Assembly (NCBI GenBank): GCA_964400885.1
Contig: CAYNWH010000002.1
Location: 24,668 to 85,582, forward strand
Direction of reading: 5' to 3'
DNA length: 60,915 bases
Origin: an uncultured Gammaproteobacteria bacterium
GTDB taxonomy: Bacteria > Patescibacteriota > Patescibacteriia > CAIXNZ01
Under the pieces are notes generated by a model. That model was not told the origin of the DNA. It was given only the letters and a program-made list of their open reading frames with translations, and did not search any database. Every line of letters starts with the position of its first letter. The stretch's first letter is position 1. Positions 10,684 to 47,262 of this stretch are shown in pieces. The translations under genes were made by a program, and so were the position numbers.

Positions 10684-10740
10684 ATTGACAAAATATTAAA
10701 TTTCTAGTAATATTTAAAATCAAACAAAAGGAGGAATGAA

Positions 10741-11001
10741 ATGAACTACGGAGAGAAATGGATGGCTCTATCTGAAAATTACCTTTGGATGATGCTTACG
10801 GGCGCAGATGAAAGAAGCAAAGAAGTTAGACACATCAGAAAAGAACTCTCGCTGCATTTAGCCAATGCTTCCGATGCTGATCTGGAGACAATGATGCAAG
10901 CTCATAACCGTTACTTTCCGGATAGGCCTAAAACCATTGAAGATTTAAAAAAATTAAGGAAGCATCATCAGGAAAAACAAAAGAACAAAAGACGCTGGTA
11001 A
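10741..11001 (+). CDS. Hypothetical protein (86 aa), GC-richer cassette
   Basis: TTGACA-N17-TAATAT promoter, AAAGGAGG SD, hairpin+T-run terminator at ~11022-11047. Confidence 0.6.
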   Translation: MNYGEKWMALSENYLWMMLTGADERSKEVRHIRKELSLHLANASDADLETMMQAHNRYFPDRPKTIEDLKKLRKHHQEKQKNKRRW

Positions 11002-11134
11002 TTAAATGGTTTTCCCTATCAAGTCGAGGTTCACCTCGGCTTTTTTTGTTGGATATTAATTTACTAATCCATTACCAATATACTAATATTGCCACATTCG
11101 TATATTCGTATATATTCGTAATTTAGTAAGATAT

Positions 11135-13231
11135 TCAATCCTCTAAATCTTCATATGTCACTGAACTTAAAAATTCATGTTTTCTTAAATTCTTAGCTGG
11201 TTTGTCAAAATCAATTTCCTCATCATCTTCATCATAAATTTCTCCATCCTCATTAACCTGCCAAGGTTCAAACAAAGAATCATCAAGTTCAGAAATAAAA
11301 CTTGAGGGTTTATTAATATTCGTGCCTGTCAAATATGAAGTGGAAATGATCGGATAAGTTAAATAAAGTTCATCCTTGGCTCTGGTTACAGCCACATAAA
11401 ATAAACGGCGTTCTTCCTCTATTTCTTCAGGATGATCATAAATTTTATAATGCGGAAACTGGCCCTCAGCCAACCCTATCAAAAATACATATTTCCATTC
11501 CAAACCTTTGGCCTGATGAATTGTGCTTAAAACCAGCATTTCATCCGGCCCTTCCTGATAACCTTCAACACTTTCCCCTTTAAAGCCTTCTGACAATGTC
11601 ACGTCGGACAAAAAATCTTCCAACTTTTTATATTGTAAAGCGAAATTAGCCAGCTGGTTCAAATCCTCCAACCGATCTTTAGCGTTTTCAAAATTAGTTT
11701 TTAAATAAGCCTCGTAATCAGCCTTTAAAATCTGCCTAATTGCTGTGGCAATAAATTCATTTTTTTGTTCCAGCAAAAATTTAAACAAACTGTTTAATTT
11801 CTCTAAACTGCGGATTATTTTAGGCGAACCGGAAATTTGGTTTAATTTTTCAACTGCTGATTTAAAATTAGAAACAGCATTTAATTCCTGCCAGATTTTT
11901 TCCGCATTAGTCGCACCAATGCCTTCATACAAAAGCAAAACCCGTTTCCAGGCCATTTCATCCTGATAATTGGCAATAATTTTCAAATAAGCAACCACAT
12001 CTTTAATATGAGCTTGTTCAAAAAATTTAATGCCCCCGCGCATAGTATAAGGAATATTTCTTTTATTTAATTCTAATTCCATTTCCATGGCCTGAAAACT
12101 GGAGCGGAACAAAATCGCCATATCATTTAAAGATGAACCTTCTTCCTGCAATTCCAAAATCCTTTGGGCAATAAATTGGGCCTGTTGTTCCCCGTCGCGC
12201 AAAGCTACTAAAGCCGGGCGTTGCTTGTGTTCAATAATTGTGTTCAAGACTTTTTGGTACTGATTTAAATTATTGGCAATGCTGTCATTAGCCAGATTTA
12301 AAATTTCCGGTGAGGAACGATAATTGGTTTCAATCTTAAAAATTTTTGTGCCTTTAAATTTTTCCGGAAAACTTAAAATATTATTAATATCAGCGGCGCG
12401 AAAAGAATAAATTGATTGGCAATCATCGCCAACCACCAAAACATTTTTATGAACTGAAGCCAATTGGTTAATTATGGCGCCCTGGATGTAATTAGTATCC
12501 TGATATTCATCCACCAAAATATATTTAAACTGGCTAGCTAATTTATTTTTAATTATTTTATCTTGTTTTAAAAGTTTTAACCAATTAATCAATAAATCAT
12601 CAAAATCCATAACATTAGTTTTCTGCTTTTTCCTTTGATAGGCCTTATTAATTATTTCAATGACTGGGATTAGCTTAGGGCCTAAATAGCTGTATTTTAA
12701 TTCCACGACTTCGCTAATTGGTTTTTGGCTATTGGAAGCAAAGGAAATAATATTTAAAATAATATCAGCTTTGGGAAAATATTTATCTTTATAATTTAAA
12801 TTTAACTCACCCATTACAGCTTTGAGCAAAGTCTTGGCATCTTCCTGGTCTAAAATGGTGAATTTATTATCATAGCCTAAATTCTTGGCATAGCGCCGTA
12901 AAATAATATTGCCAATGTGGTGAAAGGTACCGCCCCATAAACCTTTAGGCTGGCATTTTAATAACACTTCTACTCTATTTAACATTTCCTTGGCGGCTTT
13001 ATTAGTAAAAGTGACTAAAAGAATATTTTTAGGATTAATGCCTTTTTCCACCAAATAAGCCACGCGATAAACCAAAGTCCGGGTTTTGCCTGATCCAGCG
13101 CCAGCCAAAACCAAACAAGGACCATCTCCATGCAAAACAACGTCCAGTTGTTCTTTATTCAATTCGTTTTGGTAATCTATTTTAAAATTACCAAGACAAA
13201 CATTCTCCTGATGTAATTTATATTGTTTCAT
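11135..13231 (-). CDS. uvrD: UvrD/PcrA/Rep-family ATP-dependent DNA helicase
   Basis: 698 aa; AGAGSGKTRTL Walker A, VDEYQDTN motif II, TIHQAKGLEW, YVAVTRAK. Confidence 0.9.
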   Translation of the reverse strand: MKQYKLHQENVCLGNFKIDYQNELNKEQLDVVLHGDGPCLVLAGAGSGKTRTLVYRVAYLVEKGINPKNILLVTFTNKAAKEMLNRVEVLLKCQPKGLWGGTFHHIGNIILRRYAKNLGYDNKFTILDQEDAKTLLKAVMGELNLNYKDKYFPKADIILNIISFASNSQKPISEVVELKYSYLGPKLIPVIEIINKAYQRKKQKTNVMDFDDLLINWLKLLKQDKIIKNKLASQFKYILVDEYQDTNYIQGAIINQLASVHKNVLVVGDDCQSIYSFRAADINNILSFPEKFKGTKIFKIETNYRSSPEILNLANDSIANNLNQYQKVLNTIIEHKQRPALVALRDGEQQAQFIAQRILELQEEGSSLNDMAILFRSSFQAMEMELELNKRNIPYTMRGGIKFFEQAHIKDVVAYLKIIANYQDEMAWKRVLLLYEGIGATNAEKIWQELNAVSNFKSAVEKLNQISGSPKIIRSLEKLNSLFKFLLEQKNEFIATAIRQILKADYEAYLKTNFENAKDRLEDLNQLANFALQYKKLEDFLSDVTLSEGFKGESVEGYQEGPDEMLVLSTIHQAKGLEWKYVFLIGLAEGQFPHYKIYDHPEEIEEERRLFYVAVTRAKDELYLTYPIISTSYLTGTNINKPSSFISELDDSLFEPWQVNEDGEIYDEDDEEIDFDKPAKNLRKHEFLSSVTYEDLED

Positions 13232-13260
13232 GCAATTTATTTTAACAAAAAAAAATCATT

Positions 13261-13378: not shown

Positions 13379-13380
13379 CA

Positions 13381-13430: not shown

Positions 13431-14489
13431 TTAATAATAACGCCATTCAATACGATGATCATCGCTGAGACGGTCAGGATTGCCTGATAACTCATCCTTC
13501 CAAGGGAATGAATTAACAGGAACGAATTGATAACTAAAACCGTCGGTAAACCGCCAATCATCGTCATGTCCAGTGGAATTATCCAGCATGTCAAGTATAC
13601 CGTATTGGGTGTAACAAGGACCATAAGCATAGCCACATTTGAAATCACCCTTAAATGAAAGCTGAAAATATTCCAAAGGAACTAATGGAGTAATAACAAG
13701 ACGAGGTAAATGGTCATAGCCTCGTCTGAATTTGAGCTGAACATAAGCACTCGGAGATTGCTCATAAATACTGCCTGACAAGGATTGCTGAATGCTCGGT
13801 TGATCCCAAGGGCTATCATGTTTCTGAAATCGAGATTTTATTCTCCATTTCAAGTAAAACATTTTATCAAGGCATTTTCTCCAGATACTACGATTAGCAA
13901 GTTCCTGGAGATATTCCTCATGTTCTGCATCAGCTTCCTCTTCCCATGAGGTCTTAAGACCAAGATGAGGAAGTAATCTGGTGTTGTAATCATCCCATGC
14001 ATCCCGCATGATCTGACCAACTAGCCAGCTATCCTGTTTACAGATTGGAAAAGTCATATGCCTGAATTCATACAAATATTCAGCCTGAAAAGGATTCCAG
14101 CGTTTTGACATTAATTCCCCAAGACGCTCGTAAATTTCTGAGTAAGGGCGTAACAAAAGCCGAAAGACTTCATCAAATTCATCATCGCTAAGGCAAGGAG
14201 TATCGCTATCACGATTAAATTGTTCGTTATAGCTTTTAATCCAAGCCTGGCGAGGTGTAAGTTGACGTTCAGCCTGATATTCGGCTTTTTCCATGACTGT
14301 GAATGGGTATGACAAACTATCCCACAGCCAAAAAATGTCACGAGCCTTCGGTTGTTCAGACTCATCCCAATCACGAGATTCATTCCACAATTGATGCAAG
14401 TATTTCCTGAGAGTATTAATTTCTGCATCATCAGCATCACGCAAATCAGCAGCATTGACATTGACCAAAGATTGTTTTAAGTAAATCAT
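13431..14489 (-). CDS. Hypothetical Trp/Asp/Glu-rich protein (352 aa)
   Basis: Long ORF with CGAGGAGG SD; no recognised domain; intermediate GC. Confidence 0.65.
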   Translation of the reverse strand: MIYLKQSLVNVNAADLRDADDAEINTLRKYLHQLWNESRDWDESEQPKARDIFWLWDSLSYPFTVMEKAEYQAERQLTPRQAWIKSYNEQFNRDSDTPCLSDDEFDEVFRLLLRPYSEIYERLGELMSKRWNPFQAEYLYEFRHMTFPICKQDSWLVGQIMRDAWDDYNTRLLPHLGLKTSWEEEADAEHEEYLQELANRSIWRKCLDKMFYLKWRIKSRFQKHDSPWDQPSIQQSLSGSIYEQSPSAYVQLKFRRGYDHLPRLVITPLVPLEYFQLSFKGDFKCGYAYGPCYTQYGILDMLDNSTGHDDDWRFTDGFSYQFVPVNSFPWKDELSGNPDRLSDDHRIEWRYY

Positions 14490-14662: not shown

Positions 14663-14690
14663 TGATAGGGCTCAATCTCTTTTCCAAATT

Positions 14691-14731
14691 AAAAAGCCCC
14701 GAACCTTCCGCATAGCGGAATAGTTCGGGGC
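14691..14731 (-). terminator. Intrinsic terminator after purC
   Basis: minus strand: gccccgaac...gttcggggc 9-bp stem followed by TTTTT. Confidence 0.75.
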
Positions 14732-14747: not shown

Positions 14748-15656
14748 TTAGGCAACGCCGAGCAGCGTTGCCAAAGAAACGTCCGGAGCCTCCGGCTTGA
14801 TGTCCAGGCTGGAAAAACCGGCGGTGATTGCGGCGATCTGCTCGAACTTCTGCTTGACCACATTGGTGTCTGCGCCATCACGGTAAAGCTGTTTGTCGAG
14901 CATGCCGCCCTTATTGAGCTGGGCCATGGCATTAGCTACGCTCAGGTCAATGGTGTTAACACCGTCGACATAGGGCCAGAGACGGAACGAGCCAGCCGTG
15001 ATTTCATCCACCAGCAGGATCTCGCCTCCGGGACCCCAGCACAGCTCGTCGCGGGCATCTCTGTCCGTCAGGATGACGCCGATTTCGATCTTGTCATCCA
15101 TGTACTGGGCCTGGGACTTGGCAAAAGCCGCTTCCAGGGCCAGGAATTGCCGCAGCTTGAGCTGGGCGATCTGGCTGAACAGGTCCATTTTTTTCTTGCG
15201 CTCGATGGTCAGCAGGAATTGCGGATCCAGAAGCGGGTCATGCAGAAAATCGTCCTTGTAGAAAAACTGCAGGAAAGGCGGGGTGAAAACCGCGCCTTCG
15301 GAGATCTTGCCGGCCCACAGTTCCAGGATAGAACCAGTGGCTACCCGGCGCATGACCACTTCTAGCTTAAGGATCTGGGTCAATTTGCGCACGATGACGA
15401 TCCGCTCTTCCGGGGAACCCAGGTAGGCCATGGGAATCCCCTGACGTTTCAGAAACTCTAGGAGATCCCGATTGGTGCGCCAGTCAACCACGGCCTTGCC
15501 CTGGATGATATCGTGTTTTTGGCCGTCGCCAGCAGTGATATCATCCTTGAACTCCAGAACTTCCGTATCCTGATTCGCCTTGTTGGCCCAGACAATCTTG
15601 GTCTTGCCCTCGGCCAGCTTTTCCCCGCGTTCCCAATCTAAGTTCAACTCCGTCAT
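14748..15656 (-). CDS. purC: Phosphoribosylaminoimidazole-succinocarboxamide (SAICAR) synthase, long form
   Basis: 302 aa; GKTKIVW, EFKDDITAGDGQKHD, EVVMRRVATGS; GC-rich; AAGGAGG SD. Confidence 0.85.
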   Translation of the reverse strand: MTELNLDWERGEKLAEGKTKIVWANKANQDTEVLEFKDDITAGDGQKHDIIQGKAVVDWRTNRDLLEFLKRQGIPMAYLGSPEERIVIVRKLTQILKLEVVMRRVATGSILELWAGKISEGAVFTPPFLQFFYKDDFLHDPLLDPQFLLTIERKKKMDLFSQIAQLKLRQFLALEAAFAKSQAQYMDDKIEIGVILTDRDARDELCWGPGGEILLVDEITAGSFRLWPYVDGVNTIDLSVANAMAQLNKGGMLDKQLYRDGADTNVVKQKFEQIAAITAGFSSLDIKPEAPDVSLATLLGVA

Positions 15657-15659
15657 TTT

Positions 15660-16184
15660 TCAGTCCTCCTTTTCAGGTGATTTTTTTTTGTCCACCTCGG
15701 GGGGCCGAGGCTTTTTCTTGGCCTTGCTCTCGAAATGTTTTTCGAAAGCCATCTGATTCACCAATAAACCGGGGTTAGTGGCCAAAATAGCCAAGGCTGC
15801 ATAGCCGGCATTGGTCACGCCCATTTTACCGCTACCAACTACCATGACTGGCAGTCCTGGCGGCATGTGGATCAGGCCGTCCACATCGCAAAAACCGTCC
15901 GCGGCGTCCACTAAAGGGACCCCAATGACTGCCACATGAGGCAACTTGGCTTTGACTGCCGAAGGCAGGTCAGCCTTGAGCCCAACCACACAGATGATGA
16001 CTTTAATGTTTCGCCGATTCAATTCATAGCAAAAATCCTGAAGTTCATCTGAGTGGCGATGAGCTGACAAGACTGACATGGTCCAAGTCACCCCAAACTC
16101 ATTGAGAAGATCGTAAAGACCGCTCTCCTCAACCACCTTTTCATCACTTTGACTGCCTAAAATCACTGCAATCTGTTGTTCCAT
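15660..16184 (-). CDS. purE: PurE (N5-CAIR mutase / AIR carboxylase family) with Lys-rich C-terminal tail
   Basis: 174 aa; IAVILGSQSD, VLSAHRHS (SAHR, class-I-like), VIGVP; C-terminal KAKKKPRPPEVDKKKSPEKED. Confidence 0.8.
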   Translation of the reverse strand: MEQQIAVILGSQSDEKVVEESGLYDLLNEFGVTWTMSVLSAHRHSDELQDFCYELNRRNIKVIICVVGLKADLPSAVKAKLPHVAVIGVPLVDAADGFCDVDGLIHMPPGLPVMVVGSGKMGVTNAGYAALAILATNPGLLVNQMAFEKHFESKAKKKPRPPEVDKKKSPEKED

Positions 16185-16283
16185 CCTTTCCTCCTCTTTA
16201 TTTTGTGGTTAATCCTCGTAACCTTCTTAACTTTATTATCAAACAGCCGCTAAAGCTGTTCATTTTTTTAAAAAACTATTACT

Positions 16284-16312
16284 AAATTAACTTAACTACG
16301 AATAAAAGTCAA
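16284..16312 (-). promoter_or_regulatory. purE-purC promoter
   Basis: TTGACT-N17-TAATTT on the minus strand; the same hexamers and spacing as the purA promoter. Confidence 0.5.
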
Positions 16313-16324
16313 GAAGAGCGCACT

Positions 16325-16404
16325 CTGTCATTCAGAGGCCATGGGCCGAAGAATCCCTAACTTAATTAAATTCAGAGACTCTTCGCTAACGCTTTGAGTG
16401 ACAG
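16325..16404. repeat. Palindromic element in the purE/purH divergent region
   Basis: ctgtcattcagaggccatgggccgaagaatcc ... agactcttcgctaacgctttgagtgacag; shares the CTGTCAT-C-GAG module with 8550 and 13261. Confidence 0.65.
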
Positions 16405-16566
16405 ATTAATTCTTTTTATTGACGGATTAATCAATTTCCGCTAAGTTATAATCATTACGTCCTTTACAATCCCTTTTAACTAAGGGTTTTAGACAAAAAA
16501 AAGTTGAAATAGATTAGGTAACAAACAAATTTCAAACCCGCCTTTGGCGGACAAGGAGGAGATCAA

Positions 16567-18324
16567 ATGACAAAACAAAAAGTAGCGGCTAAAGCAGGCG
16601 GTAAAAAGCCCCAGGGAAAAAAAACAAAAATGGCAGCAGCCAAAAAGGCCAAGAGAGAAAAACCGGCCTTGAAGGGCTTAAAAATCCCCAAAGGCAAAAA
16701 AGTCGCCTTGATCTCGGTTTTTAACAAAACCGGGATCGTGGAATTTGCCCAGGCCCTGATCAAAATGGGCTGGGTGATCCTGTCTTCAGGCGGCACAGCC
16801 AAGAAACTGAGCGAAGCCGGCCTCAAAGTCACTGACGTGGCAGAGCTAGTCGGCGGCGGCGCTATCCTGGGCCATCGCGTGGTCACCTTATCGCGTGAAG
16901 TCCATGCCGGGCTTTTGGCGCGAGAAATTCCTGAAGACATCGAGGAAATGGAAAAGCTGGGACTGCCCTACATCCACATGGTGGTCTGCGACTTTTACCC
17001 CATGAAAGACATTATTACCAAGGCTGGCGCGACCATTGAGTCAGTCGTGGAAATGACTGACATTGGCGGGCCCACCATGGTCAGAAGCGCTGCCAAAGGT
17101 GGCCGCATAGTCATCTGCGACGCGGCTGACCGCGACTGGGTCTTGGAAAGAATGAAATCCAGGAAAAAACATGATCTTTCGCCTTTTGACATCCAGCATC
17201 TGCGGGCCAAAACGGAAATCGTGGTCAGCCAGTATTGCCTGGACTCGGCCAAGTTCCATAGCCAAGGACGCTTCACCGGCTTAGCCGGCCAGTTCCTGAA
17301 AAAGTGCAAGTATGGCGAAAATCCGTACATGAACGACGAGGTTACTGGCCTTTTCACCACCGGCAGCAAAGATCGTCTGGCTTTGGAAAACTTCCAGCTG
17401 ATCGAGGGCACGGATCCGTCATTCATCAACTACACAGACATGGATCGGTTGATGCAGAGCATCACCCATATCGCGGCTGGCTTTGACCTCAATTTCAGCC
17501 GCGTGCCCCTGATCGCCTGCGCAGTCAAGCACGGCAACCCGTGCGGCGCAGCCGTTGGCTATGACCCCAAAAAAGTCATTGCCAACATGGCCATGGGTGA
17601 TAACCTGGCGCTTTTCGGCGGCCTGGTCATGACCAACTTCCCCTTGACCGAGGAGCTGGTGGAACTGCTGATGACCATTAACCAGCCCCAAGGAAAAAGG
17701 CTGCTGCTTGATGGAGTCATGGCTCCGCATGTCACAGACGAAGCCATTGCCCTGCTCAAGCGCAAAACTGACAAGTGCCGCATCCTGGTCAACAAGCATC
17801 TGATGAACATCAACAAATCCAGCCTGGACACCAATGAGCGTATCAGGCCAGTGCGCGGCGGTTTCCTGCGCCAGCCCAATTACACCTATGTTCTGGATCT
17901 GTCCGATCCGCGGTTGGTCATCACCATGCCCAAGAACCATGACGGCCTGACCGAGCTCGACTACGAGGACATTACCCTGGCCTGGGGAGTGGGAGCTACT
18001 TCCAACAGCAACACGACCTGCCTGACTCGGGAAGGCCAACTGCTCGGTGACGGTGTGGGCCAGCAAAGTCGGGTTGCCAGCTGCCAAGTGGCAGTTTTCC
18101 GCACCAAAGCAGCTGGCCATCAGACAGGAGCATCTGTGGCCTACACAGACTCGTTCTGTCCGCAGCCTGACGCACCAGAAGTCCTGGCCAACGCAGGAGT
18201 CAGCATCCTGTTCGCCAGCTCTGGCTCAGTCAACGACAAAATCGTCCAGAAGACCTGCCAAAAACGCGGGCTCATCCTGATCCAGTTGCCAGACAAAGTC
18301 TGCCGTGGCTTTTTCGGCCACTAA
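16567..18324 (+). CDS. purH: Bifunctional AICAR transformylase / IMP cyclohydrolase with Lys-rich N-terminal extension
   Basis: 585 aa; MGS-like domain (ALISVFNKTGIVEFA, SSGGTAKKL), AICARFT domain (KHGNPCGAA); ~45-aa K-rich leader sequence; strong AAGGAGG SD. Confidence 0.9.
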   Translation: MTKQKVAAKAGGKKPQGKKTKMAAAKKAKREKPALKGLKIPKGKKVALISVFNKTGIVEFAQALIKMGWVILSSGGTAKKLSEAGLKVTDVAELVGGGAILGHRVVTLSREVHAGLLAREIPEDIEEMEKLGLPYIHMVVCDFYPMKDIITKAGATIESVVEMTDIGGPTMVRSAAKGGRIVICDAADRDWVLERMKSRKKHDLSPFDIQHLRAKTEIVVSQYCLDSAKFHSQGRFTGLAGQFLKKCKYGENPYMNDEVTGLFTTGSKDRLALENFQLIEGTDPSFINYTDMDRLMQSITHIAAGFDLNFSRVPLIACAVKHGNPCGAAVGYDPKKVIANMAMGDNLALFGGLVMTNFPLTEELVELLMTINQPQGKRLLLDGVMAPHVTDEAIALLKRKTDKCRILVNKHLMNINKSSLDTNERIRPVRGGFLRQPNYTYVLDLSDPRLVITMPKNHDGLTELDYEDITLAWGVGATSNSNTTCLTREGQLLGDGVGQQSRVASCQVAVFRTKAAGHQTGASVAYTDSFCPQPDAPEVLANAGVSILFASSGSVNDKIVQKTCQKRGLILIQLPDKVCRGFFGH

Positions 18325-18340
18325 TTCCTTTCACCAACTA

Positions 18341-18371
18341 AAAAAGGGATGCGTTTTCACGCATCCCTTTT
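18341..18371. terminator. Bidirectional terminator between convergent purH and purB
   Basis: AAAAA-gggatgcg-ttttca-cgcatccc-TTTT. Confidence 0.8.
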
Positions 18372-18393
18372 ACTATTGTTATGTTTTTGACCG

Positions 18394-19755
18394 TTATTGG
18401 AAACGGGCAAAAATAGTATTAATGTGCTTCAGATCCTCTTGCGGATCAAAGCATGTTTCCAGTTCCCTTCTACTCAGAATCTTGACGATTTTCTGATTCT
18501 TAAAAACTCGCTCTTGGAAAGTCGGACCGTCCGGATTGTCAAAGACTTCCCAGCAGAGATTCTGAATAAAGGTGTGAGCCGCTTCCCTGCCCATGCCTTT
18601 GCGCGTCAGGGCCAGCATGACTTTCTGGGAGAAAATCAAACCGCCAGTCAATTCCAAGTTGCGCTTCATGTTGCGCGGATTGACCTGCAATTTTTTGATG
18701 ATGCCGGCCATCCTGGCCAAGCTATAGTCGACCAATGCTGAAGAGTCAGGCAAAATGACGCGCTCAGCCGCGGAATTGGCAATATCCCGCTCATGCCAGG
18801 TGACCATGTTTTCCAGTGCTGTGACCACATAGCCCCGTAAAGTCCGGGAATTACTGCAAACGTTTTCCGGTCCAATGGGGTTGCGTTTGTGTGGCATGGC
18901 TGAACTGCCTTTTTGGCCGCGTACGAATTCTTCCTGCACCTCGGCGATCTCAGTACGTTGAAGGTTGCGTAGCTCAGTCCCCAACCTGTCCAATGTACCG
19001 CCGATCATAGCCATGAGCGTGACATACTCGGCATGCAGATCCCGGGGCAGAATCTGAGTGGAAATACGCGCCGGTTTAATGCACAGCAAGTTGCAGACCC
19101 GCTCTTCAATCCGGGGATCAATATTGGCATAAGTGCCGACTGCCCCGGAAATCTTTCCCACGCAGATCCGCTCCAGCATCTGAAAAAGCCGCTCTTTATG
19201 GCGCTCGAATTCGTCGACATAGACCAGCAGCTTGAACCCGAAAGTAATGGGCTCGGCCTGAACCCCGTGAGTCCGGCCGATTTGAACTTGATCCTTGTAC
19301 AACTTGGCTTTAGTCCTGATCTCAGCGATCAAGCGTTCCAAGTCTGCCCTGATCAGTCCAGCTGACGCTGCCAGAATGACGGACAAAGCCGTATCCTGCA
19401 CGTCATAAGAAGTAACACCCTGGTGAAATAAAGGCAGCAGCGCAGTCAGTTCCAGCTTTTTCAGCTGAAGAGTTACATGCTTAACAAAGGCCATAACATC
19501 ATGACGATTGCCCTTTTCCTTGACTGTGCCGTCCTTGTTCTTGGCACCGTTTTCAATGCGGTTAATAATATGCGGCTTGATAACCACCTTTTCACGGGCG
19601 ATTTCAATTTCTCGCCGCACCTGCTTTGCATTATTGACCAAGCCTAAATTGCACTTGGCCAAAATTATAGCTAACTCGACTTCCAGCCAAGTTTTGAACT
19701 TGTGCTGGTCGCTCCAGCAACTACCCATTTTCTTAGGCGTATACCTGGGTATCAT
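18394..19755 (-). CDS. purB: Adenylosuccinate lyase
   Basis: 453 aa; MIPRYTPKKM start, GSSAMPHKRNP signature, fumarate-lyase fold length; GC-rich; AAGGAGG SD. Confidence 0.9.
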   Translation of the reverse strand: MIPRYTPKKMGSCWSDQHKFKTWLEVELAIILAKCNLGLVNNAKQVRREIEIAREKVVIKPHIINRIENGAKNKDGTVKEKGNRHDVMAFVKHVTLQLKKLELTALLPLFHQGVTSYDVQDTALSVILAASAGLIRADLERLIAEIRTKAKLYKDQVQIGRTHGVQAEPITFGFKLLVYVDEFERHKERLFQMLERICVGKISGAVGTYANIDPRIEERVCNLLCIKPARISTQILPRDLHAEYVTLMAMIGGTLDRLGTELRNLQRTEIAEVQEEFVRGQKGSSAMPHKRNPIGPENVCSNSRTLRGYVVTALENMVTWHERDIANSAAERVILPDSSALVDYSLARMAGIIKKLQVNPRNMKRNLELTGGLIFSQKVMLALTRKGMGREAAHTFIQNLCWEVFDNPDGPTFQERVFKNQKIVKILSRRELETCFDPQEDLKHINTIFARFQ

Positions 19756-19945
19756 TCGTAATCCTCCTTTTCAGTCTTTTTCTGCAACTATTGCAGCAGA
19801 ATTTTTGTTCTGCCGGACTTCTACCCTCAAATCTGGGATCAGGCACTAACTGATCAGTATTTCTACCGCAGCCCGGGATCGGGCATTTCAGCTTTTTTCT
19901 GGTCAGTGTTTTGTTATACCTGCCATTCTTTAATCTTCTTGCCAT
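19733..19945 (-). CDS. Small basic CxxC...CxxC protein (70 aa) overlapping the purB start
   Basis: GGAAGGAGG SD; CPIPGC and CCNSC pairs; ORF runs through the purB SD and overlaps purB by 23 nt. Confidence 0.5.
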   Translation of the reverse strand: MARRLKNGRYNKTLTRKKLKCPIPGCGRNTDQLVPDPRFEGRSPAEQKFCCNSCRKRLKRRITNDTQVYA

Positions 19946-20353: not shown

Positions 20354-21802
20354 ATGCCAACTAAAAAGGAAAAAAATCTTTTAGAAAAATTACCGCCGCA
20401 AAGCATTGAAGCTGAACAGTCTTTACTGGGTTCTCTTTTGATTGATAAAGACGCAATTATTAAAATTGCTGACATAGTCGGACCTGAAGATTTTTACGTT
20501 GAGAAACACAGGATAATTTTTGAATCAATTTTATATTTATTTAGCAAAAGAGAGCCAATAGATCTTTTAACATTGGCTAACCGCTTAATTGAAAAAGAAC
20601 AATTAGAAAATATCGGCGGCCGCAGTTATCTAGTTTCTTTAAGCAATCTTGTGCCTACTTCCAGCCATGTGGTCAATTATGCAGAAATTGTCCAAAAAAA
20701 AGCTACTTTGCGCAATTTGATAAAATCAGCTTCGGAAATAACTAAAATGGGCTATGATGAAGAAGAAGATGTCAGCAATATTTTGGACAAAGCTGAACAA
20801 AAATTATTTTCAGTTTCCCAGGGCCATCAAAAACAAATGTTTGTGCCTATTACCAGTATCTTGAATGAGACATTTGAAAGAATTGATGCTATTCATAAAG
20901 AAAAAGGCAAATTAAGAGGCGTGCCTACTGGTTTTACTGATCTGGATAATTTATTAGCCGGTTTGCAAAAATCAGACTTGACTATTCTAGCTGCCAGACC
21001 TTCTGTTGGTAAGACTACTTTGGCTTTAGATATTGCCCGCACCGTAGCCACTAAACATAAAGTACCTGTTGGCATTTTCAGTTTAGAAATGTCTAAAGAA
21101 CAGCTAGTTGACCGCTTGCTTTGCGCTGAAGCTAATGTTGATTTATGGAAAATGAGAACCGGCAGATTATCTGACCGGGAAGAAGATGATGATTTTCCTC
21201 GAATCGGCCATGCTTTAGGCGTTTTAGCTGAATCACCGATTTTTATTGATGATTATGCTTCAGCAAATATTATGGAAATCAGAACCAAAGCCAGAAGACT
21301 GCAAATGGAACATGATCTAGGTTTAATTGTGGTTGATTACCTGCAATTAATGGAAGGCAGGACCAGAACAGATAATCGCGTTCAGGAAATTTCAGAAATT
21401 TCCCGCGGTTTAAAACAAATTGCTAAAGAATTAAATGTGCCAGTTCTGGCGCTCTCTCAGCTAAACAGAAGTGTAGAATCACGCACGCCGCCTATACCTA
21501 AATTATCTGACTTACGCGAATCAGGTTCTATTGAACAAGATGCTGATATTGTTATGTTTATTTACCGTGAAGCAGTATATAAAAGAGACTTAGAATTTGA
21601 CCGCCGCCATTTAGCGGAGATTCATATTGCCAAACACAGAAACGGCCCGACTGGCATGGTAAAATTATTTTTTGACGAACAAAAAGTAACTTTTAGAAAT
21701 TTGGATAAAGAATTCAAATCTTCAGCGCCCAGTGAACTGCCTGAAGTTTCTGATGATGAAGGCTTGCAAAGTTCTGAGATGCAATTGCCAAAATTTGGCT
21801 AA
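20354..21802 (+). CDS. dnaB: Replicative DNA helicase
   Basis: 482 aa; PPQSIEAEQSLLGSLL N-terminus, ARPSVGKTTLAL Walker A, VVDYLQLM, RESGSIEQDAD. Confidence 0.95.
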   Translation: MPTKKEKNLLEKLPPQSIEAEQSLLGSLLIDKDAIIKIADIVGPEDFYVEKHRIIFESILYLFSKREPIDLLTLANRLIEKEQLENIGGRSYLVSLSNLVPTSSHVVNYAEIVQKKATLRNLIKSASEITKMGYDEEEDVSNILDKAEQKLFSVSQGHQKQMFVPITSILNETFERIDAIHKEKGKLRGVPTGFTDLDNLLAGLQKSDLTILAARPSVGKTTLALDIARTVATKHKVPVGIFSLEMSKEQLVDRLLCAEANVDLWKMRTGRLSDREEDDDFPRIGHALGVLAESPIFIDDYASANIMEIRTKARRLQMEHDLGLIVVDYLQLMEGRTRTDNRVQEISEISRGLKQIAKELNVPVLALSQLNRSVESRTPPIPKLSDLRESGSIEQDADIVMFIYREAVYKRDLEFDRRHLAEIHIAKHRNGPTGMVKLFFDEQKVTFRNLDKEFKSSAPSELPEVSDDEGLQSSEMQLPKFG

Positions 21803-22034: not shown

Positions 22035-22071
22035 AAAAAACCCAGCGCCATTATGGTGCTGGGCTGTTTTT
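22035..22071. terminator. Bidirectional terminator
   Basis: AAAAAA-cccagcgcc-attat-ggtgctggg-ctgTTTTT. Confidence 0.65.
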
Positions 22072-22185
22072 AGCCTTGTCCCCTAATAATTCAGGGTGAT
22101 TTTTAATAATATAATTTGCCACAAGGACTAAACCTGTAAACAGGCATACACCTACTACTGCCAAGACAGCAATCAAAGTATCCAT
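22051..22185 (-). CDS. Possible 44-aa single-pass membrane peptide
   Basis: TAAGGAGG SD 5 nt from ATG; MDTLIAVLAVVGVCLFTGLVLVANYIIKNHPELL...; stop lies inside the terminator stem; below the ORF-track cutoff. Confidence 0.4.
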   Translation of the reverse strand: MDTLIAVLAVVGVCLFTGLVLVANYIIKNHPELLGDKAKNSPAP

Positions 22186-22334
22186 GTTTCGCCTCCTTAT
22201 TAAATTTAATTATAGCTTATTTAAAATCCTATCTGCTGTCAAATGCTAAATTCTTGTGTTTATCATAAATTTCCGTTAAAATAATCAATATCCTATCACT
22301 AATCACCAATCACCAATTACTAATTACTAAAACT

Positions 22335-23348: not shown

Positions 23349-23387
23349 AGCCCCGAACCATTATGGTCCGGGGCAACTTGTCCTTGC

Positions 23388-24103: not shown

Positions 24104-24208
24104 TACTTTAGAATTAAGTATTAAGAATTAAGTTTAAAATTAAAAAAGATTAGTACCGAGCTAAATCTTGATTAATATCTTAACTTATTTTTAAAAATCT
24201 GTCAAATG

Positions 24209-24817: not shown

Positions 24818-24838
24818 AACTTTAAGATTGTTTTATTG

Positions 24839-34334: not shown

Positions 34335-35096
34335 ATGTCAGAATCAAAAGTTCTTTCAAACGCTGAAGGTCGGGAAGGAAAGCCGAAAGTCAAAAAAAGC
34401 GACTATTTTTTCTATTGCGTGTTTTACCCGGTTTTTAAGCTACCTTTAGCAGTCACGCCAAACCATATTTCCTATGCCAGACTCATCCTCTGTGTGCCGC
34501 TCAGTTACCTGATGGTTACCGGGCATTTAAAAACCGCCGGCGCCCTTTTTATTTTCATGGCGCTCATGGACGGACTGGACGGATCAATGGCCAGGATGCG
34601 CGGACAAATCACTTCCAAGGGCAAGGTAGTTGACCCTATCGCAGACAAAGGCCAGACCATAACTGTGCTTGTTAATTTCAACTTGCTCATTCTGGTCGTC
34701 TCATACTTCTGGCTAAGCTTGCTGATGATAGGAATCGACATAACCCTTTTGCTGGTAGCCCTGCTGCAATACCTTATCCATGATGTGCTGCCAAAAGCGG
34801 GTCCGAATCACTGGCTGGCAAAATGGTTAAGCCCTGGATCAATTTTACGCAAAATAAAAGTCAAAGAAACTGGCGCCAATAATTGGGGCAAAGGCAAAAT
34901 GGTTGTGCTGGTAATCACCTTATCAGCCATGTTGCTTTTTCATCCCAATGCTGATTACTTCATTTTTTCCAGCCTCAAACTGCCTTGGCATCTGACCATG
35001 TATAATATTTTTTATCAGCAGCTGCTGGCAATCTGTGTTGTTTTGGGATTAATGAGTCTTCGGGGACACCTAAAAGTCTTCAAATTCCAAAATTAA
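34335..35096 (+). CDS. CDP-alcohol phosphatidyltransferase family protein
   Basis: 253 aa; exact D-x2-DG-x2-AR-x8-G-x3-D-x3-D (DGLDGSMARMRGQITSKGKVVDPIADK); GGAGGAGG SD; GC-richer. Confidence 0.8.
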   Translation: MSESKVLSNAEGREGKPKVKKSDYFFYCVFYPVFKLPLAVTPNHISYARLILCVPLSYLMVTGHLKTAGALFIFMALMDGLDGSMARMRGQITSKGKVVDPIADKGQTITVLVNFNLLILVVSYFWLSLLMIGIDITLLLVALLQYLIHDVLPKAGPNHWLAKWLSPGSILRKIKVKETGANNWGKGKMVVLVITLSAMLLFHPNADYFIFSSLKLPWHLTMYNIFYQQLLAICVVLGLMSLRGHLKVFKFQN

Positions 35097-36592: not shown

Positions 36593-36811
36593 TTAGGCTG
36601 CCTGTGAACTGGCCATCCCGTGTTGTCTGGCCAATGCCAGGAGTCCGTCACCGCAGGTTCTTTGCTGTCGCCTGACTTTCGCCATGCGAGCAATGAACCT
36701 TTCAGCTGGCGTGCCAGGAGGACCTTGCCCAAAAGGAACAGACAAGGTCAATGCTCCAGTTGCTGATCCTGCCAGCGCTAACTCGCCTTTGCCGTTTTGC
36801 ATGTCTTGCAA
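36593..36811 (-). CDS. Hypothetical GC-rich ORF (72 aa; may start at an upstream TTG)
   Basis: ORF in a very GC-rich segment; GGGGGTG SD-like box upstream; Gly/Ala/Pro-rich then basic; coding status uncertain. Confidence 0.35.
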   Translation of the reverse strand: MQDMQNGKGELALAGSATGALTLSVPFGQGPPGTPAERFIARMAKVRRQQRTCGDGLLALARQHGMASSQAA

Positions 36812-36831: not shown

Positions 36832-37059
36832 TTAGAAAACAAATGACTCGCTCTGGATCTCTTTTGGCCCTTGCTTAACAATTTCTTCCCAACGTTTCAT
36901 TGCCGCTGCAAAGCTTTCTTTGCTCATGTGGATAATTATTTTTTCCAAATCAGCAAGGAAATCACTGGCCTTTTGATACCAGTCTGTTGCCTGATCTTTG
37001 ACTGCCTCGACTAAACTCTTCATGTGGCTTAATATCCGTAACCTTTCATAAACTGGCAT
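36832..37059 (-). CDS. Hypothetical helical protein (75 aa)
   Basis: AAGGAGGTG SD 6 nt from ATG; preceded by a ~230-nt structured leader. Confidence 0.55.
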   Translation of the reverse strand: MPVYERLRILSHMKSLVEAVKDQATDWYQKASDFLADLEKIIIHMSKESFAAAMKRWEEIVKQGPKEIQSESFVF

Positions 37060-43371: not shown

Positions 43372-43586
43372 ATCTTTTAGTAATTAGTAATTAGTAATTA
43401 GTTATTGGTTATTAGTGATATGAATAAAAAAATCTACGGGACACCGTAGATACAACTATAAGCTATTAGCCATAGGCCATTTGCTAAAAGTCAATTCCCT
43501 CGATAGGTTTTACGCTTTAAAAGCCACCTATTGTCTACGGTTATATTAAGTTATAAACAGTATAACATAACCAAAAATATTGTCAA
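43372..43586 (-). promoter_or_regulatory. rplJ promoter and ~185-nt leader with internal terminator (candidate L10-leader-type attenuator)
   Basis: TTGACA-N16-TGtTATACT; atctacgg-tgtc-ccgtagat + TTTTTTT (43425-43451) lies inside the leader; then a 53-nt G-free tract up to the ATG. Confidence 0.45.
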
Positions 43587-43641: not shown

Positions 43642-43878
43642 TTAAGAGATTGTTTGGGCGTCAAATAATCTTTTTAAGCCCTTAATTACCTCTGGCGGCC
43701 CAGTAAATGTCAGCAGATCCCTGCCATCGCCATAGGCATCTTTACTGACGCTCACCTTAACTCCATGGGGTTTTAAAGCCAGAGCAATAATTTCAATTGT
43801 ATTGTCCATACCTCCGTTACCATTGCTCAGGCTTTTACCGACCTTGAAAACAGTTTTTTTTCCCTCATCCTTTGCCAT
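43642..43878 (-). CDS. Hypothetical protein (78 aa)
   Basis: CAAGGAGG SD; GC-richer; no recognised domain. Confidence 0.55.
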   Translation of the reverse strand: MAKDEGKKTVFKVGKSLSNGNGGMDNTIEIIALALKPHGVKVSVSKDAYGDGRDLLTFTGPPEVIKGLKRLFDAQTIS

Positions 43879-44231: not shown

Positions 44232-44816
44232 TTAAGAGAAATGACTTTTCTCCTTATTAATAAAGCTTAAAGCCTGAGTAACAATTTCCGGTTTATAAAA
44301 CAAGCTCAAACTTTCAAGGTATTTGTTGCCTTCAATCAACTTAACCTGAAAATTCTTTGCTAAACTATCATCGGCTTGACGCACAAAAAGCGCTTTAATC
44401 TTGTGCAGACTGCAAACTGCATCTATGGCCTCAATATTACGTTTAATTTGAGTGCCAACTGATAAATGTTCTTTAAATCCTCCCTTAAGACCGCAACACA
44501 GACAAACTAAGGCATAAGGAGGTAATGGCCTGTTTAATTCTGAGCCATATTTAAGATTTAGGCTAATTTGCCAACGGGTGGCAATCTCTGAGTCGTTCCA
44601 AATCAGCCAAGCAAATTCGGGCACTAACTCTGAATGTAGCAATACGATTTCACCGCGTTCAACTTCCTTTACTCTGATCACTTCAAGTTTACTAGCTTTT
44701 GAGGTAAAGTAAACTGCTTCGCTCAAAGGGGTTAATTTAATCAGTTCTTCTTTAAATTCAGCCGCAGATTGAGAATCAGGCTTAAACTCAAAAATCCTAT
44801 ACAATCTTAAACTCAT
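44232..44816 (-). CDS. Uncharacterised 194-aa protein under tandem SAM-riboswitch control
   Basis: AAGGAGG SD 7 nt upstream of the internal ATG (MSLRLYRIFEF...); not hydrophobic; no recognised domain; own terminator agcccttgtgg-atta-ccacaagggct. Confidence 0.7.
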   Translation of the reverse strand: MSLRLYRIFEFKPDSQSAAEFKEELIKLTPLSEAVYFTSKASKLEVIRVKEVERGEIVLLHSELVPEFAWLIWNDSEIATRWQISLNLKYGSELNRPLPPYALVCLCCGLKGGFKEHLSVGTQIKRNIEAIDAVCSLHKIKALFVRQADDSLAKNFQVKLIEGNKYLESLSLFYKPEIVTQALSFINKEKSHFS

Positions 44817-44871
44817 TTCCCTACCTCCTTGTCTTTTGTTGTTTAAAGAACACTTTGGGACGATAAGCAAA

Positions 44872-44902
44872 TAAAAAAATCTTTCCCAAAAGAGAAAGAT
44901 TT
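44872..44902 (-). terminator. Expression-platform terminator of SAM riboswitch B
   Basis: minus strand aaatctttc-tcttttg-ggaaagatt + TTTTTT; the 3' arm GGAAAGAT is identical to the aptamer P1 3' strand. Confidence 0.8.
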
Positions 44903-44926
44903 GAACTCAAAAAATTGAACTACCAG

Positions 44927-45031
44927 TTATCTTTCCCTTTTACAAGGGCGGAAATTAGCACCTACTGGCTGGTTTTTGCCAGGGTTGCCGCACAGGTCAC
45001 GGAGTCCGAACTCTCACTGTGCTCTTGATAA
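44927..45031 (-). promoter_or_regulatory. SAM-I (S-box) riboswitch aptamer, copy B (variant P2)
   Basis: minus strand TTATCAAGAGCACAG...CTGTGCGGCAACCCTGG...CCAG..GGTGCTAATTTCCGCCCTTGTAAAAGGGAAAGATAA; P1-P4 pairings are readable. Confidence 0.75.
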
Positions 45032-45062
45032 TTTTTTATTCAATTGTTAATGTACTCTAGTT

Positions 45063-45101
45063 AAAAACAAAAAATCTTACGCGCTACGAGGGGGTAAGAT
45101 C
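45063..45101 (-). terminator. Expression-platform terminator of SAM riboswitch A
   Basis: minus strand atcttac-cccctcgtagcgc-gtaagat + TTTTTGTTTTT; GATCTTACCCC can alternatively pair with the aptamer GGGGAAGAT. Confidence 0.75.
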
Positions 45102-45117
45102 TAAAATATATAACTTA

Positions 45118-45241
45118 TTATCTTCCCCCATGAGGCGGGGCTGGATTTAGCACCTTATCCTACAAAGCGTTATAAACGGCTTGGTAAGGTAGGTTGCTGG
45201 CAGAATCATGAGGCCAGTTCCGGATTCTGCTCTCTTGATAA
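45118..45241 (-). promoter_or_regulatory. SAM-I (S-box) riboswitch aptamer, copy A
   Basis: minus strand TTATCAAGAGAGCAGAATCCGGAACTGGCCTCATGATTCTGCCAGCAACC...GGTGCTAAATCCAGCCCCGCCTCATGGGGGAAGATAA matches S-box core strings (UAUCAAGAGAG, ACUGGCC, AUGA, GCAACC, GGUGCUAAAUCC, GAAGAUAA). Confidence 0.85.
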
Positions 45242-45267
45242 CTACTTATTCAGTTTTAACTATAAGC

Positions 45268-45296
45268 ATTATAGCATATCTAAACTTTTTTGTCAA
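45268..45296 (-). promoter_or_regulatory. Consensus promoter driving the tandem riboswitch leader
   Basis: minus strand TTGACA-N17-TATAAT with TGc extended -10. Confidence 0.7.
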
Positions 45297-45770: not shown

Positions 45771-45836
45771 ATATTCTTATTTTACTTTTAGCCAAGCAAA
45801 AAGGCAAGGTTTTCACACCTTGCCTTTTAAAAAGCA

Positions 45837-47135
45837 TTAATCCCTCCAGGGATTTTGCATGATAATGGTCTGGCCTTTGTGTTGTCCGACTGAGATGGCC
45901 ACCAGCGGCACACCAGCCAGTTGGCTGATCATAAGGAAAAGTTTTTGCGCTGCTTTGGGCAAGTCCTCAAAGGCCCGACAGCCAGAGATGTCATTGTCAA
46001 AGCTGCCCATTTCCTGGAAATGAGGCTGAACATCCTGAAGATCCAGGGTATCAAGTTCATCCAAGTCTCGGATGATTCTATCTCCCTGCTGGTAATAGTC
46101 ACAGACCATGGTGTTGATGCCTTGTAAAACATCGCCCTTAGTAATGACTACTCCAGTCAGCCCACCGACACGAGAAGCTGCTCTAGTTTGCGGACCATCA
46201 TGCCAGCCGACACGTCTGGGGCGACCAGTTGAAGCGCCATACTCCTGGCCGCGCGCTCTGATTTCCTCGCCCAAGTCGCCGTCAAGCTCGGTCGGGAAAG
46301 GACCGCCGCCGACTCTGGTGCAATAAGCCTTGGTCACGCCATAGACCTCGTCAATCAGGGTGGGACCAATGCCGGCGCCAGAACAGGCACCACCAGCCAA
46401 GGTACAGGATGAAGTGACGTAAGGATAGGTGCCGTGGGTCTTGTCTAGACCTGGGCCCTGGGCCAGCTCGATCAGCACATTTTGCTCGCTGTCCCTAGCC
46501 TGGGTGACGATCTTGGACAACGGCTCCTTAAGGATGTAAGGCTCCAAGATCTGCCTGGCTTGCTCCAAGAAAGTCATGATGTCCTCGACCGTGTAAGTCT
46601 GACCGCCCCAATGAGCCAGTTCCGGATTTATTTCATTGAGGATGGTCTTGACATAAGCACGAATTTGCTCCAGATGCAGCAAGTCCGTCACCCGCAGGCC
46701 TAAACGCCTGACCTGCATTTCATAGGTAGTGCCAATGCCCCGTCCAGTGGTGCCAATGGCTGCCTTGCCCCGAGCATGTTCCCGGAATTTTTCCAGGTCC
46801 AAGCAATAAGGCATGACCAGCTGGGCCAAACGCGAGACCCCAAGCTGCTGGCATCTCAAAAAGCCCTTGGCTGTCAGGTCGGTGATCTCCTGTTCAAATC
46901 CCGTGGGATAAATGACCATGTCATTCCCCAAAAAACAACGTGCCCGGGAATGACTTACCGCACTGGGAGCCAGATGAGTGACAGCTTTTACGCCATCAAC
47001 AAATTGGGTATGGCCAGAATTAGCCCCGCCAGCTACCCGGACCACCACGTCAGCATCTTCGCCAAATTCATGAACCAATCGACCTTTGCCTTCGTCACCC
47101 CATTGATTGCCACCGTAAACAATTAATCTACCCAT
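45837..47135 (-). CDS. purA: Adenylosuccinate synthetase
   Basis: 432 aa from the SD-supported ATG (CAAGGAGG-N7-ATG; MGRLIVYGGNQWGDEGKG); GTTGRGIG, TKGDVL; very GC-rich; the 36-aa N-terminal extension of the track ORF was discarded. Confidence 0.9.
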   Translation of the reverse strand: MGRLIVYGGNQWGDEGKGRLVHEFGEDADVVVRVAGGANSGHTQFVDGVKAVTHLAPSAVSHSRARCFLGNDMVIYPTGFEQEITDLTAKGFLRCQQLGVSRLAQLVMPYCLDLEKFREHARGKAAIGTTGRGIGTTYEMQVRRLGLRVTDLLHLEQIRAYVKTILNEINPELAHWGGQTYTVEDIMTFLEQARQILEPYILKEPLSKIVTQARDSEQNVLIELAQGPGLDKTHGTYPYVTSSCTLAGGACSGAGIGPTLIDEVYGVTKAYCTRVGGGPFPTELDGDLGEEIRARGQEYGASTGRPRRVGWHDGPQTRAASRVGGLTGVVITKGDVLQGINTMVCDYYQQGDRIIRDLDELDTLDLQDVQPHFQEMGSFDNDISGCRAFEDLPKAAQKLFLMISQLAGVPLVAISVGQHKGQTIIMQNPWRD

Positions 47136-47233
47136 CACTACCTCCTTGTGATGAAGCCAACCCGGATCGGGTGGGTGAATGTTCGAAACACAATATCTAT
47201 ATAAAAAGAGCTGTAAATTACAACCCCTTTCTA

Positions 47234-47262
47234 AAATTAACAATAACTAATTAATCAGTCAA
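47234..47262 (-). promoter_or_regulatory. purA promoter
   Basis: minus strand TTGACT-N17-TAATTT, the same hexamers as the purE promoter. Confidence 0.5.

Follow-up and report, generated by a model that had tools for sequence, protein, structure and literature searches.

Shine-Dalgarno sites separate core from flexible genes all-or-none in a stretch of an apparent Patescibacteria chromosome

We analyzed a 60.9-kb stretch of contig CAYNWH010000002.1 (hereafter the window), in which housekeeping genes without Shine-Dalgarno (SD) sites alternate with open reading frames (ORFs) led by strong ones. The guanine-plus-cytosine (GC) content of the window is 36.9% overall, with islands at 45-56%, and swings from ~33% to 55% across short distances. 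The core genes encode ordinary housekeeping proteins (murB/C, gatC, glyA, folD, uvrD, dnaB, ybaB, recR, rplU, a clpB-like ATPase, tgt, ftsL, rsmH, mraZ, rplJ/L, rlmH, iPGM, a DUF192 gene, and a family-4 glycosyltransferase). Among species-representative genomes, tgt was closest to that of metagenome-assembled genomes named Candidatus Uhrbacteria (83%) and Candidatus Buchananbacteria (76%); other Patescibacteria came next. The host is therefore a bacterium of the candidate phyla radiation (CPR)/Patescibacteria, of the Parcubacteria/ABY1 type and Buchananbacteria/Uhrbacteria-like, and the window appears to be chromosomal. In look-ups, neither the clpB-like protein nor the final ORF of the window had an exact match, probably because gene starts were called differently.

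SD strength was scored as the duplex energy between the 20 nucleotides (nt) upstream of each start and ACCUCCUUA, the canonical 16S rRNA tail, which we took to match the host's own 16S end. Over 68 ORFs, the energies were strictly bimodal: 22 ORFs scored -10.7 kcal/mol or lower, 46 scored -5.4 kcal/mol or higher, and none fell between. This bears out an original prediction, made from the sequence without database searches, that the core genes lack SD sites and the GC-richer ORFs carry them. Five SD genes were scored from a downstream start proposed by that earlier reader rather than from the longest ORF; when the best in-frame start within 25 codons was allowed for each ORF, 21 ORFs were strong, 3 were intermediate, and 44 had no SD. 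All 22 strong-SD ORFs fall between 10741 and 47135. A gene for a 44-amino-acid (aa) peptide, already on the earlier reader's list, raises the class to 23, about a third of the local genes (23/69). From 10.7 to 47.2 kb, core genes break up the SD genes into 12 separate blocks, in keeping with the at least ten alternations originally noted. A census of GGAGG on both strands yielded 54 pentamers; the 23 SD-led ORFs account for 24 of these, placed 3-8 nt ahead of their ATG. At several sites the motif extends to AAGGAGGUGA, as pairing with ...UCACCUCCUUA-3' of the canonical 16S tail predicts.

The two classes also differed in composition. The GC fraction at third codon positions (GC3) was 0.47 in SD genes and 0.28 in the rest (Mann-Whitney p = 1e-10), and in a comparison by codon position G+C was higher at all three (GC1/2/3, 0.53/0.37/0.51 versus 0.44/0.31/0.29). 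The classes differed in both anti-SD energy and GC3, the two quantities that the original prediction had proposed to compare, with overlap in GC: the SD genes at 24246, 44232, 38587, and 25585 have only 37-39% GC, and SD-less murB, 1445-1993, and a macro-domain gene reach 40-42%. Predicted folding of the start region, a measure that includes the G-rich SD itself, was stronger in SD genes (-6.3 versus -3.7 kcal/mol, p = 0.003). The SD class was short of known families, with a Pfam match in 6 of 23 proteins compared with 24 of 27 in the core (Fisher p = 8e-6). SD-like pentamers were mildly depleted within core genes (42 observed versus 56 +/- 7 expected, P ~0.03), which offers weak support for an accessible anti-SD.

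The split and the interleaved architecture recur in seven contigs from other samples (L003, L004, L005, L025, L027, L030, and L031). In all, eight related contigs from independent assemblies have the split, and six of these are syntenic, with the modules in matching slots. Among their 127 pooled genes, 56 scored -8 kcal/mol or lower, 70 scored above -6 kcal/mol, and a single gene fell between. Most modules, each an SD-led unit with its own expression signals, were found at the same slot in these relatives, a check that the original prediction had proposed, and a minority is window-specific. The pur island beside dnaB is also present in L025, L030, and L031, and stacks of 3-5 small ORFs are again found between the clpB operon and tgt. 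Upstream of the SD-gene orthologues, GGAGG was exact in 51 of 53 regions, with a spacer of 4-9 nt in nearly all. The median protein identity to L025 was 64% in the SD class and 86% in the core (p = 0.002), and that to L027 was 31% and 67%, respectively (p = 0.0005); divergence is about twice as fast in the SD class. Since the SD stays perfect while the protein drops to ~30% identity, purifying selection is likely to act on the SD, in which case the ribosome of this lineage must use it. These results suggest that the 16S anti-SD is intact and functional in the lineage.

Composition followed SD status less strictly in the relatives. Many SD genes of L030 and L031 match the core in AT-richness, with GC falling to 25% (for example, in a gene with AAAAGGAGG), and no significant difference in GC3 separates the classes there; L030, L031, L004, and L005 all have SD-led genes with a GC content of 25-36%. 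The AT-rich SD genes of L030 and L031 indicate that SD status is the primary mark and GC-richness a secondary one. In L032, a distant and non-syntenic Patescibacteria contig, purH, purE, and purC are SD-led with GC3 of 0.52-0.72, compared with ~0.37, and lie among SD-less AT-rich genes.

The core genes, all scoring -5.4 kcal/mol or higher, have orthologues in L025 that are 77-90% identical, and their starts are genuine, with orthologues aligning from residue 1. Upstream of these starts G is scarce (<= 0.15 at each position between -15 and -1), A reaches ~0.65 from -5 to -3, and T reaches 0.74 at -1, giving the consensus AAAAU-AUG. AAAAT was present in 26 of 46 core upstream regions (15.8 +/- 2.8 expected). 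Judged from the placement of their promoters, tgt, rplU, and mraZ have leaders of ~28-84 nt, and leaderless transcription was therefore ruled out as a general explanation. G-free tandem heptads (AATCACC/ACTAATT, 4-5 copies) lie at 22295-22334 (+) and 43372-43411 (-), directly before the SD-less ybaB and rplJ starts. Periodic CTAAAA/AAAATTC leaders, like the heptads, precede the minus-strand ORFs starting at 10117, 5026, 24103 (rplU), and 31480. Both kinds of repeat may be enhancers of SD-less initiation.

TTGACA-N17-TAnnnT promoters were found upstream of most SD units, and an intrinsic terminator behind 17 of ~18 SD transcription units, in line with the expression signals originally described. 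That description did not hold as a distinction, because promoters of the same type also precede core units: rplU (Table 1), the L10 leader (43586-43559), tgt (34286-34257), and mraZ (37843-37815). With the same promoter type before both classes, only the SD discriminates between them. The joints between modules are very compact, with terminator U-tracts running straight into the -35 box of the next unit (e.g., ...GGGGCTTTTTATTTGACA...) at 24796-24760, 24236-24177, 31934-31880, and 44225-44166 (all on the minus strand). A stem, GCCCCGrAC...GTTCGGGGC, is common to three module terminators (23350-23374, 24796-24817, and 14687-14720) and may reflect common ancestry of module 3' ends.

Table 1. SD-led modules of the window, with one core promoter and one core gene for comparison
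Feature	Position	Strand	Properties
Orphan ORF, 86 aa	10741-11001	+	SD AAAAGGAGGAATGAA, -11.6 kcal/mol; promoter 10685-10713; terminator 11021-11042
Orphan ORF, 352 aa, W/D/E-rich	13431-14489	-	SD-led; promoter 14662-14634; terminator 13410-13390
purE (15660-16184) and purC (14748-15656)	14748-16184	-	SD-led (-12.0 and -11.6 kcal/mol); 50-56% GC; Pfam AIRC, SAICAR_synt
purH	16567-18324	+	SD-led; 55% GC; Pfam match; bidirectional terminator 18342-18371 shared with purB
Zn-ribbon-like ORF, 70 aa (19733-19945), and purB (18394-19755)	18394-19945	-	Both SD-led
44-aa hydrophobic peptide gene	22051-22185	-	Own promoter, SD (TAAGGAGGCGAAAC), and terminator
Orphan ORF, 93 aa	23388-23669	-	SD-led; terminator 23374-23350
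Two SD-led units, 144 aa and 200-aa membrane protein	24246-25441	-	Slot between rplU and AcrVA2-like gene; each terminator fused to next promoter
AcrVA2-like protein, 395 aa	25585-26772	+	SD-led; promoter 25525-25553; precomputed PF26125
Four small ORFs, 63/131/81/105 aa	31612-33040	-	SD-led; slot between clpB operon and tgt
CDP-alcohol phosphatidyltransferase	34335-35096	+	SD-led; GC3 0.51; Pfam match
75-aa ORF between mraZ and rsmH	36832-37059	-	SD-led
Two-gene unit, 98 aa then 182 aa	38021-38883	-	SD-led; no family match
78-aa ORF	43642-43878	-	SD-led; bidirectional terminator 43632-43605
Riboswitch unit: promoter 45296-45268, SAM-I riboswitches 45244-45115 and 45034-44924, 194-aa Cys-cluster gene 44232-44816	44232-45296	-	Gene SD-led
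purA	45837-47135	-	SD-led (-12.7 kcal/mol); 54% GC; Pfam Adenylsucc_synt, 426 bits
Core promoter of rplU	24177-24205	-	TTGACA-N17-TAAGAT; conserved in L025 and L030
Core gene dnaB	20354-21802	+	Example of SD-less class; Pfam match; orthologues in L025

Several modules encode purine biosynthesis (Table 1). purE, purC, purH, and purB (14748-19755), together with purA, encode the path from aminoimidazole ribonucleotide through IMP to AMP. The group to which the host belongs is usually without purine synthesis. PurH carries a Lys-rich N-terminal extension of ~45 aa and PurE a Lys-rich C-terminal tail. An identical PurH protein is present in independent Logan and JGI assemblies, and the 7.4-kb Logan contig that carries the identical purH runs from the GC-rich island into dnaB.

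The gene for the AcrVA2-like protein is SD-led and syntenic beside the DUF192 gene in L004, L005, L025, and L027. In L030, the annotated start has no SD, and promoter alignment reveals an upstream start preceded by one. The gene is a conserved chromosomal neighbor of DUF192 in every relative covering the site (e.g., L025, 10001-11191; L027, 3822-5015; L030, 18585-19586). Its homologues comprised only 12 clusters among 5.8 billion. The AlphaFold2 model (predicted local distance difference test [pLDDT], 79) had AcrVA2 (7ci1) as its best and sole notable PDB fold match, a weak one (E 2e-3, TM 0.35/0.44). Despite the precomputed PF26125 assignment, no match was obtained in the local Pfam copy and no sequence match in the PDB, and the AcrVA2 label is tentative.

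Several smaller modules were also retained in relatives. The 93-aa ORF has positional orthologues with 51% (L025), 37% (L004), and 32% (L030 and L031) identity, all of them SD-led. The slot between the clpB operon and tgt holds five modules in L025 (46-84% identity) and three in L027. The phosphatidyltransferase gene lies beside tgt with an SD in all five relatives covering the site (L003, L004, L005, L025, and L027), at 33-75% identity, and a small SD-led ORF also occupies the mraZ/rsmH slot in L003, L004, L005, and L027. Protein-level orthologues exist for such GC-rich ORFs, and the idea that the GC-rich segments are structured RNAs was therefore rejected for them. Between the 75-aa module and rsmH lies a 220-nt segment (36593-36811 [-], 55.7% GC) with only a weak TTG ORF after AGGGGGTG, whose product is of low complexity; the segment has no Rfam match and is not obviously conserved in relatives. 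The 86-aa ORF had no Pfam or PHROG match, and the 352-aa ORF had no Pfam, PHROG, PADLOC, or viral-contig relative. For the modules at 10741, 13431, and 38021, no homologue was found in the relatives examined or in viral contigs.

The 194-aa gene lies behind a perfect TTGACA-17-TATAAT promoter and two complete S-adenosylmethionine (SAM)-I aptamers (RF00162), which scored 48.8 and 59.2 bits against an Rfam gathering threshold of 44.4. Each aptamer is followed by its own terminator hairpin and U-tract, and the tandem riboswitches are predicted to control the gene. The protein is a singleton by word search, with 15 remote homologues (26-35% identity) among 1.8 billion representatives, and four cysteines in the pattern C-x-C-C...C are conserved or nearly so. 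No PDB fold match was obtained for its confident AlphaFold2 model (pLDDT 86). The protein may have a novel SAM- or sulfur-related function in a CPR bacterium. Elsewhere in the window, an SD-less AT-rich gene (47827-48408 [-]) encodes a Translin-family protein (Pfam, 84 bits), a family that is mainly eukaryotic and archaeal.

Comparison of slots among the relatives revealed turnover. In the slot between rplU and the AcrVA2-like gene, L025 and L030 have argG and L027 has a 135-aa ORF where the window has two orphan units. In alignments of this slot, the promoters are kept on both sides, and the stretch comprising the 5' untranslated region (5'UTR), SD, ORF, and terminator differs; this stretch, lying between conserved promoters, appears to be the exchanged unit. 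purH is orthologous throughout the pur islands of the clade. By contrast, purC and purE of the window share only ~31% identity with purCE, their fused counterpart in L025 and L030, and this argues for xenologous replacement; purB is 79% identical to that of L025 and 30% to those of L030 and L031. We conclude from these comparisons that purC, purE, and purB were probably replaced xenologously within the clade. The simplest mechanism would be the swapping of modules by homologous recombination through conserved flanks. The cassette behavior originally proposed is thus real but slow: modules come, go, and are exchanged at the slots, and several lack a detectable homologue in all of the contigs compared, but most modules are not recent imports.

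We interpret the split as a stable dual initiation regime, in which SD-less core genes coexist with plug-in, SD-led flexible modules, and we put the probability of this reading at about 0.6. The core genes, AT-rich and mostly operonic, would start without an SD on G-poor, A/U-rich leaders. The flexible genome would comprise purine and arginine biosynthesis add-ons, the phospholipid transferase, the AcrVA2-like protein, and many small orphans, built as autonomous units of promoter, 5'UTR with SD, ORF, and terminator wedged between core operons, and every module would carry a canonical AAGGAGG 3-8 nt before its ATG. Vertical inheritance would maintain such modules over long periods, with divergence at about twice the core rate, and occasionally a module would be exchanged as a unit between conserved flanking promoters. 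A strong SD would make a module translatable in any context. SD-less initiation would rely on co-evolved unstructured leaders and 5' coding regions, so that only SD-equipped genes would persist in the exchangeable pool. GC-richness would be a secondary and variable property of that pool. Of the two explanations offered in the original prediction, the one that fits best is that accessory genes have a translational regime of their own, with the SD class conserved slot by slot and the SD kept while the proteins diverge.

Several points weigh against this reading. The loci compared cover ~66 kb of the host genome and 8-22 kb per relative, and genome-wide proportions lie beyond that; within the window, SD genes are absent from 1-10.7 kb and 47.2-60.9 kb. 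No 16S rRNA is present in the window or in any fetched relative locus, and the anti-SD is something we infer. The GC3 excess persists unexplained in the long-resident purH and phosphatidyltransferase genes, at +0.1 to +0.4 over the core in every genome. The plug-and-play rationale is likewise deduced, and expression of the modules is predicted from sequence. In addition, an anti-SD motif was detected in no more than 48% of Parcubacteria and was lost mostly within the group lacking uL1 (Tsurumaki et al. 2022, PMC9297842). That study concerns the same superphylum and likewise points to reduced SD reliance in CPR ribosomes, but it deals with the absence of an rRNA motif and describes no bimodal SD pattern at the gene level. 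Given the conserved perfect SDs found here, we argue that this lineage keeps a functional anti-SD.

The closest known analogue would be the SD-blind ribosome of Bacteroidia, in which initiation is SD-independent, with rpsU as an SD-led exception (Jha 2021, PMC7797042; McNutt 2023, PMC9976891; Naeem 2026, PMC13000453). Flavobacterium johnsoniae has essentially one strong-SD gene, rpsU, where the SD serves autoregulation (PMC7797042, PMC9976891, PMC13000453). In Bacteroidia, A is enriched at -3, -6, -12, and -13, structure around the start is low, and the canonical anti-SD is sequestered by bS21, bS18, and bS6 (PMC7797042, PMC9976891, PMC13000453, PMC13000457). The A fractions of our core genes were 0.61 at -3, 0.48 at -6, 0.57 at -12, and 0.52 at -13, with stronger signals from A at -5/-4 and T at -1. 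The two systems are alike in that most genes are SD-less on A-rich, G-poor, weakly structured leaders and a minority has a strong conserved SD, and Bacteroidia show that two initiation modes can run side by side in one lineage. The host differs in belonging to another phylum and in that SDs are not near-absent (23/69 local genes) and mark an accessory or flexible class: strong SDs are not confined to rpsU but are found on purA/B/C/E/H, the phosphatidyltransferase, the AcrVA2-like gene, and orphans.

Bacteroidia also provide the precedent for the alternative that survives best, a specialized ribosome or global switch. Here the anti-SD would normally be sequestered, and the SD class would be read by a sub-population of ribosomes (e.g., without bS21) or gated by an anti-SD small RNA, and switched as a block. 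SD-led translation by bS21-less ribosomes has been described in Bacteroidia (PMC9976891, PMC13000453), and the core leaders of the window resemble the A-rich, G-poor, unstructured type found there (PMC13000457). The all-or-none separation, lacking intermediate strengths, also resembles two channels more than a continuum. However, no rRNA or bS21/bS18/bS6 genes are present in the window or fetched loci, and the SD-led third of the local genes includes purA/B/C/E/H, which are expected to be needed constitutively. We regard this alternative as unlikely, although it deserves to be kept in view.

A candidate for the small RNA is one of two non-coding units, at 6741-6972 (+) and 6996-7136 (+), each with an extended -10 promoter (TGCTATAAT) and a strong terminator. 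Strong structure is predicted for both (z = -5.5 and -4.0, respectively), and neither unit has an Rfam match. The first bases of unit 6741-6972 would be (C)ACCUCCUUA, which repeats the canonical 16S 3' tail and is thus complementary to the module SDs; the unit could be an anti-SD regulatory RNA, or the resemblance could be a coincidence. The candidate was found in one genome only, and a 10-mer match has a chance of ~0.1 of arising somewhere in the window. A metagenome scan with glyA for relatives covering the candidate small RNAs yielded only distant glyA loci (<=54% identity), dominated by the motif DYANVQPH. The fuller proposal, two separable translation channels in which the SD-led flexible genome is a regulon block-switched via access to the anti-SD (through bS21-type heterogeneity or a trans-acting anti-SD small RNA), would be a rather long shot. 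Were it true, accessory functions could, for instance, be switched on and off over an episymbiotic life cycle, and the lasting difference of the SD class in GC and codon use would belong to the channel separation.

The other explanation in the original prediction was that a host without SD use repeatedly and recently took up whole expression units, the donor being SD-using, GC-richer, and Firmicutes-like; this now appears improbable. The atypical composition of the SD genes, the slot turnover with xenologous replacement, the lack of homologues in relatives or viral contigs for the modules at 10741, 13431, and 38021, and the singleton status of the 44232 protein by word search are all in its favor. 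However, most modules have positional orthologues with intact SDs in relatives that share only 46-90% identity in their core proteins, and the conserved AAGGAGG sites imply that the host itself uses SDs. The promoters fit the host consensus and are kept across swaps, and SD genes are AT-rich in L030 and L031. The taxonomic best-match check, run for purH alone, gave no indication of a Firmicutes-like donor: among the matches listed, the closest homologues of PurH were from Buchananbacteria (62-77%), followed by hundreds of Patescibacteria/Paceibacterota clusters (51-56%). For the conserved modules, these comparisons largely refute recent acquisition.

Signs of mobility were also sought. The window contains no tRNA genes or flanking repeats, and no integrase or transposase domain was found among 50 window proteins (~2/3 of ORFs) scanned against Pfam. 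The 18 SD-class proteins scanned against PHROG gave no meaningful match, the sole weak one (E 1e-4) linking the CDP-alcohol phosphatidyltransferase to a function-unknown family, and no viral-contig relatives were found for the three SD-class proteins tried. A phage origin of the modules was rejected on these PHROG and viral-contig negatives, and a defense-system origin was rejected since PADLOC defense families gave no matches. Phage morons and flexible islets are autonomous promoter-ORF-terminator units of atypical composition that lie between conserved genes and vary at fixed slots. The modules share with morons the promoter-ORF-terminator build and the distinct GC between conserved genes, but their flanks are housekeeping genes (dnaB, recR, rplU, tgt, mraZ, rplJ) rather than phage genes, many are conserved over long distances, and their mark, the SD, is translational. 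They resemble integron cassettes as small ORF units stacked at defined sites; unlike those, they have their own promoters and terminators and neither attC-like repeats nor an integrase. With horizontally acquired islands they share atypical base composition (GC3 0.47 versus 0.28), but mobility signatures are missing and most modules are present at the same slot in relatives.

A physical necessity, in which GC-richer genes fold more around the start codon and hence need an SD, would make class membership a matter of composition and not of history. In the window, SD genes indeed have more GC and stronger predicted folding around their starts, although the G-rich SD itself enters into that folding comparison. 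L030, L031, L004, and L005 have SD-led genes with as little as 25-36% GC, GC3 does not differ significantly in L030 and L031, and the window has SD-less genes of 40-42% GC; this explanation is more doubtful still than recent acquisition. Lastly, a chimeric assembly of an AT-rich and a GC-richer organism, which would account for the GC jumps from ~33% to 55% over short distances and had been named as an outcome that would overturn the original prediction, is excluded for practical purposes, because the interleaving recurs in eight other contigs from different samples and assemblers, the independent Logan assembly spans the pur island into dnaB, and each of the 12 alternations has precise terminator/promoter joints.

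Our literature searches turned up no earlier account of bimodal SD usage for CPR, Patescibacteria, Parcubacteria, or Paceibacteria. Reliance on SDs is usually taken as a property of the genome as a whole (high, low, or absent). In the reading that we favor, one genome, and apparently a whole branch of the Patescibacteria, would show an all-or-none SD split along the divide between core and flexible genes, kept by selection over deep divergence. If this is general, a ribosome could hold two initiation pathways fully apart by gene class, and the question of why SD-poor lineages retain the anti-SD would become testable by comparative genomics. Gene calling would also be affected, with start models trained on one class mis-scoring the other; the NCBI start of purH is placed differently from the SD-led start used here. 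These results suggest that a foreign-looking composition combined with an SD, promoter, and terminator need not signal recent transfer, and that, if the split is general, the SD would offer a simple way to recognize the flexible genome from sequence in uncultured CPR bacteria.

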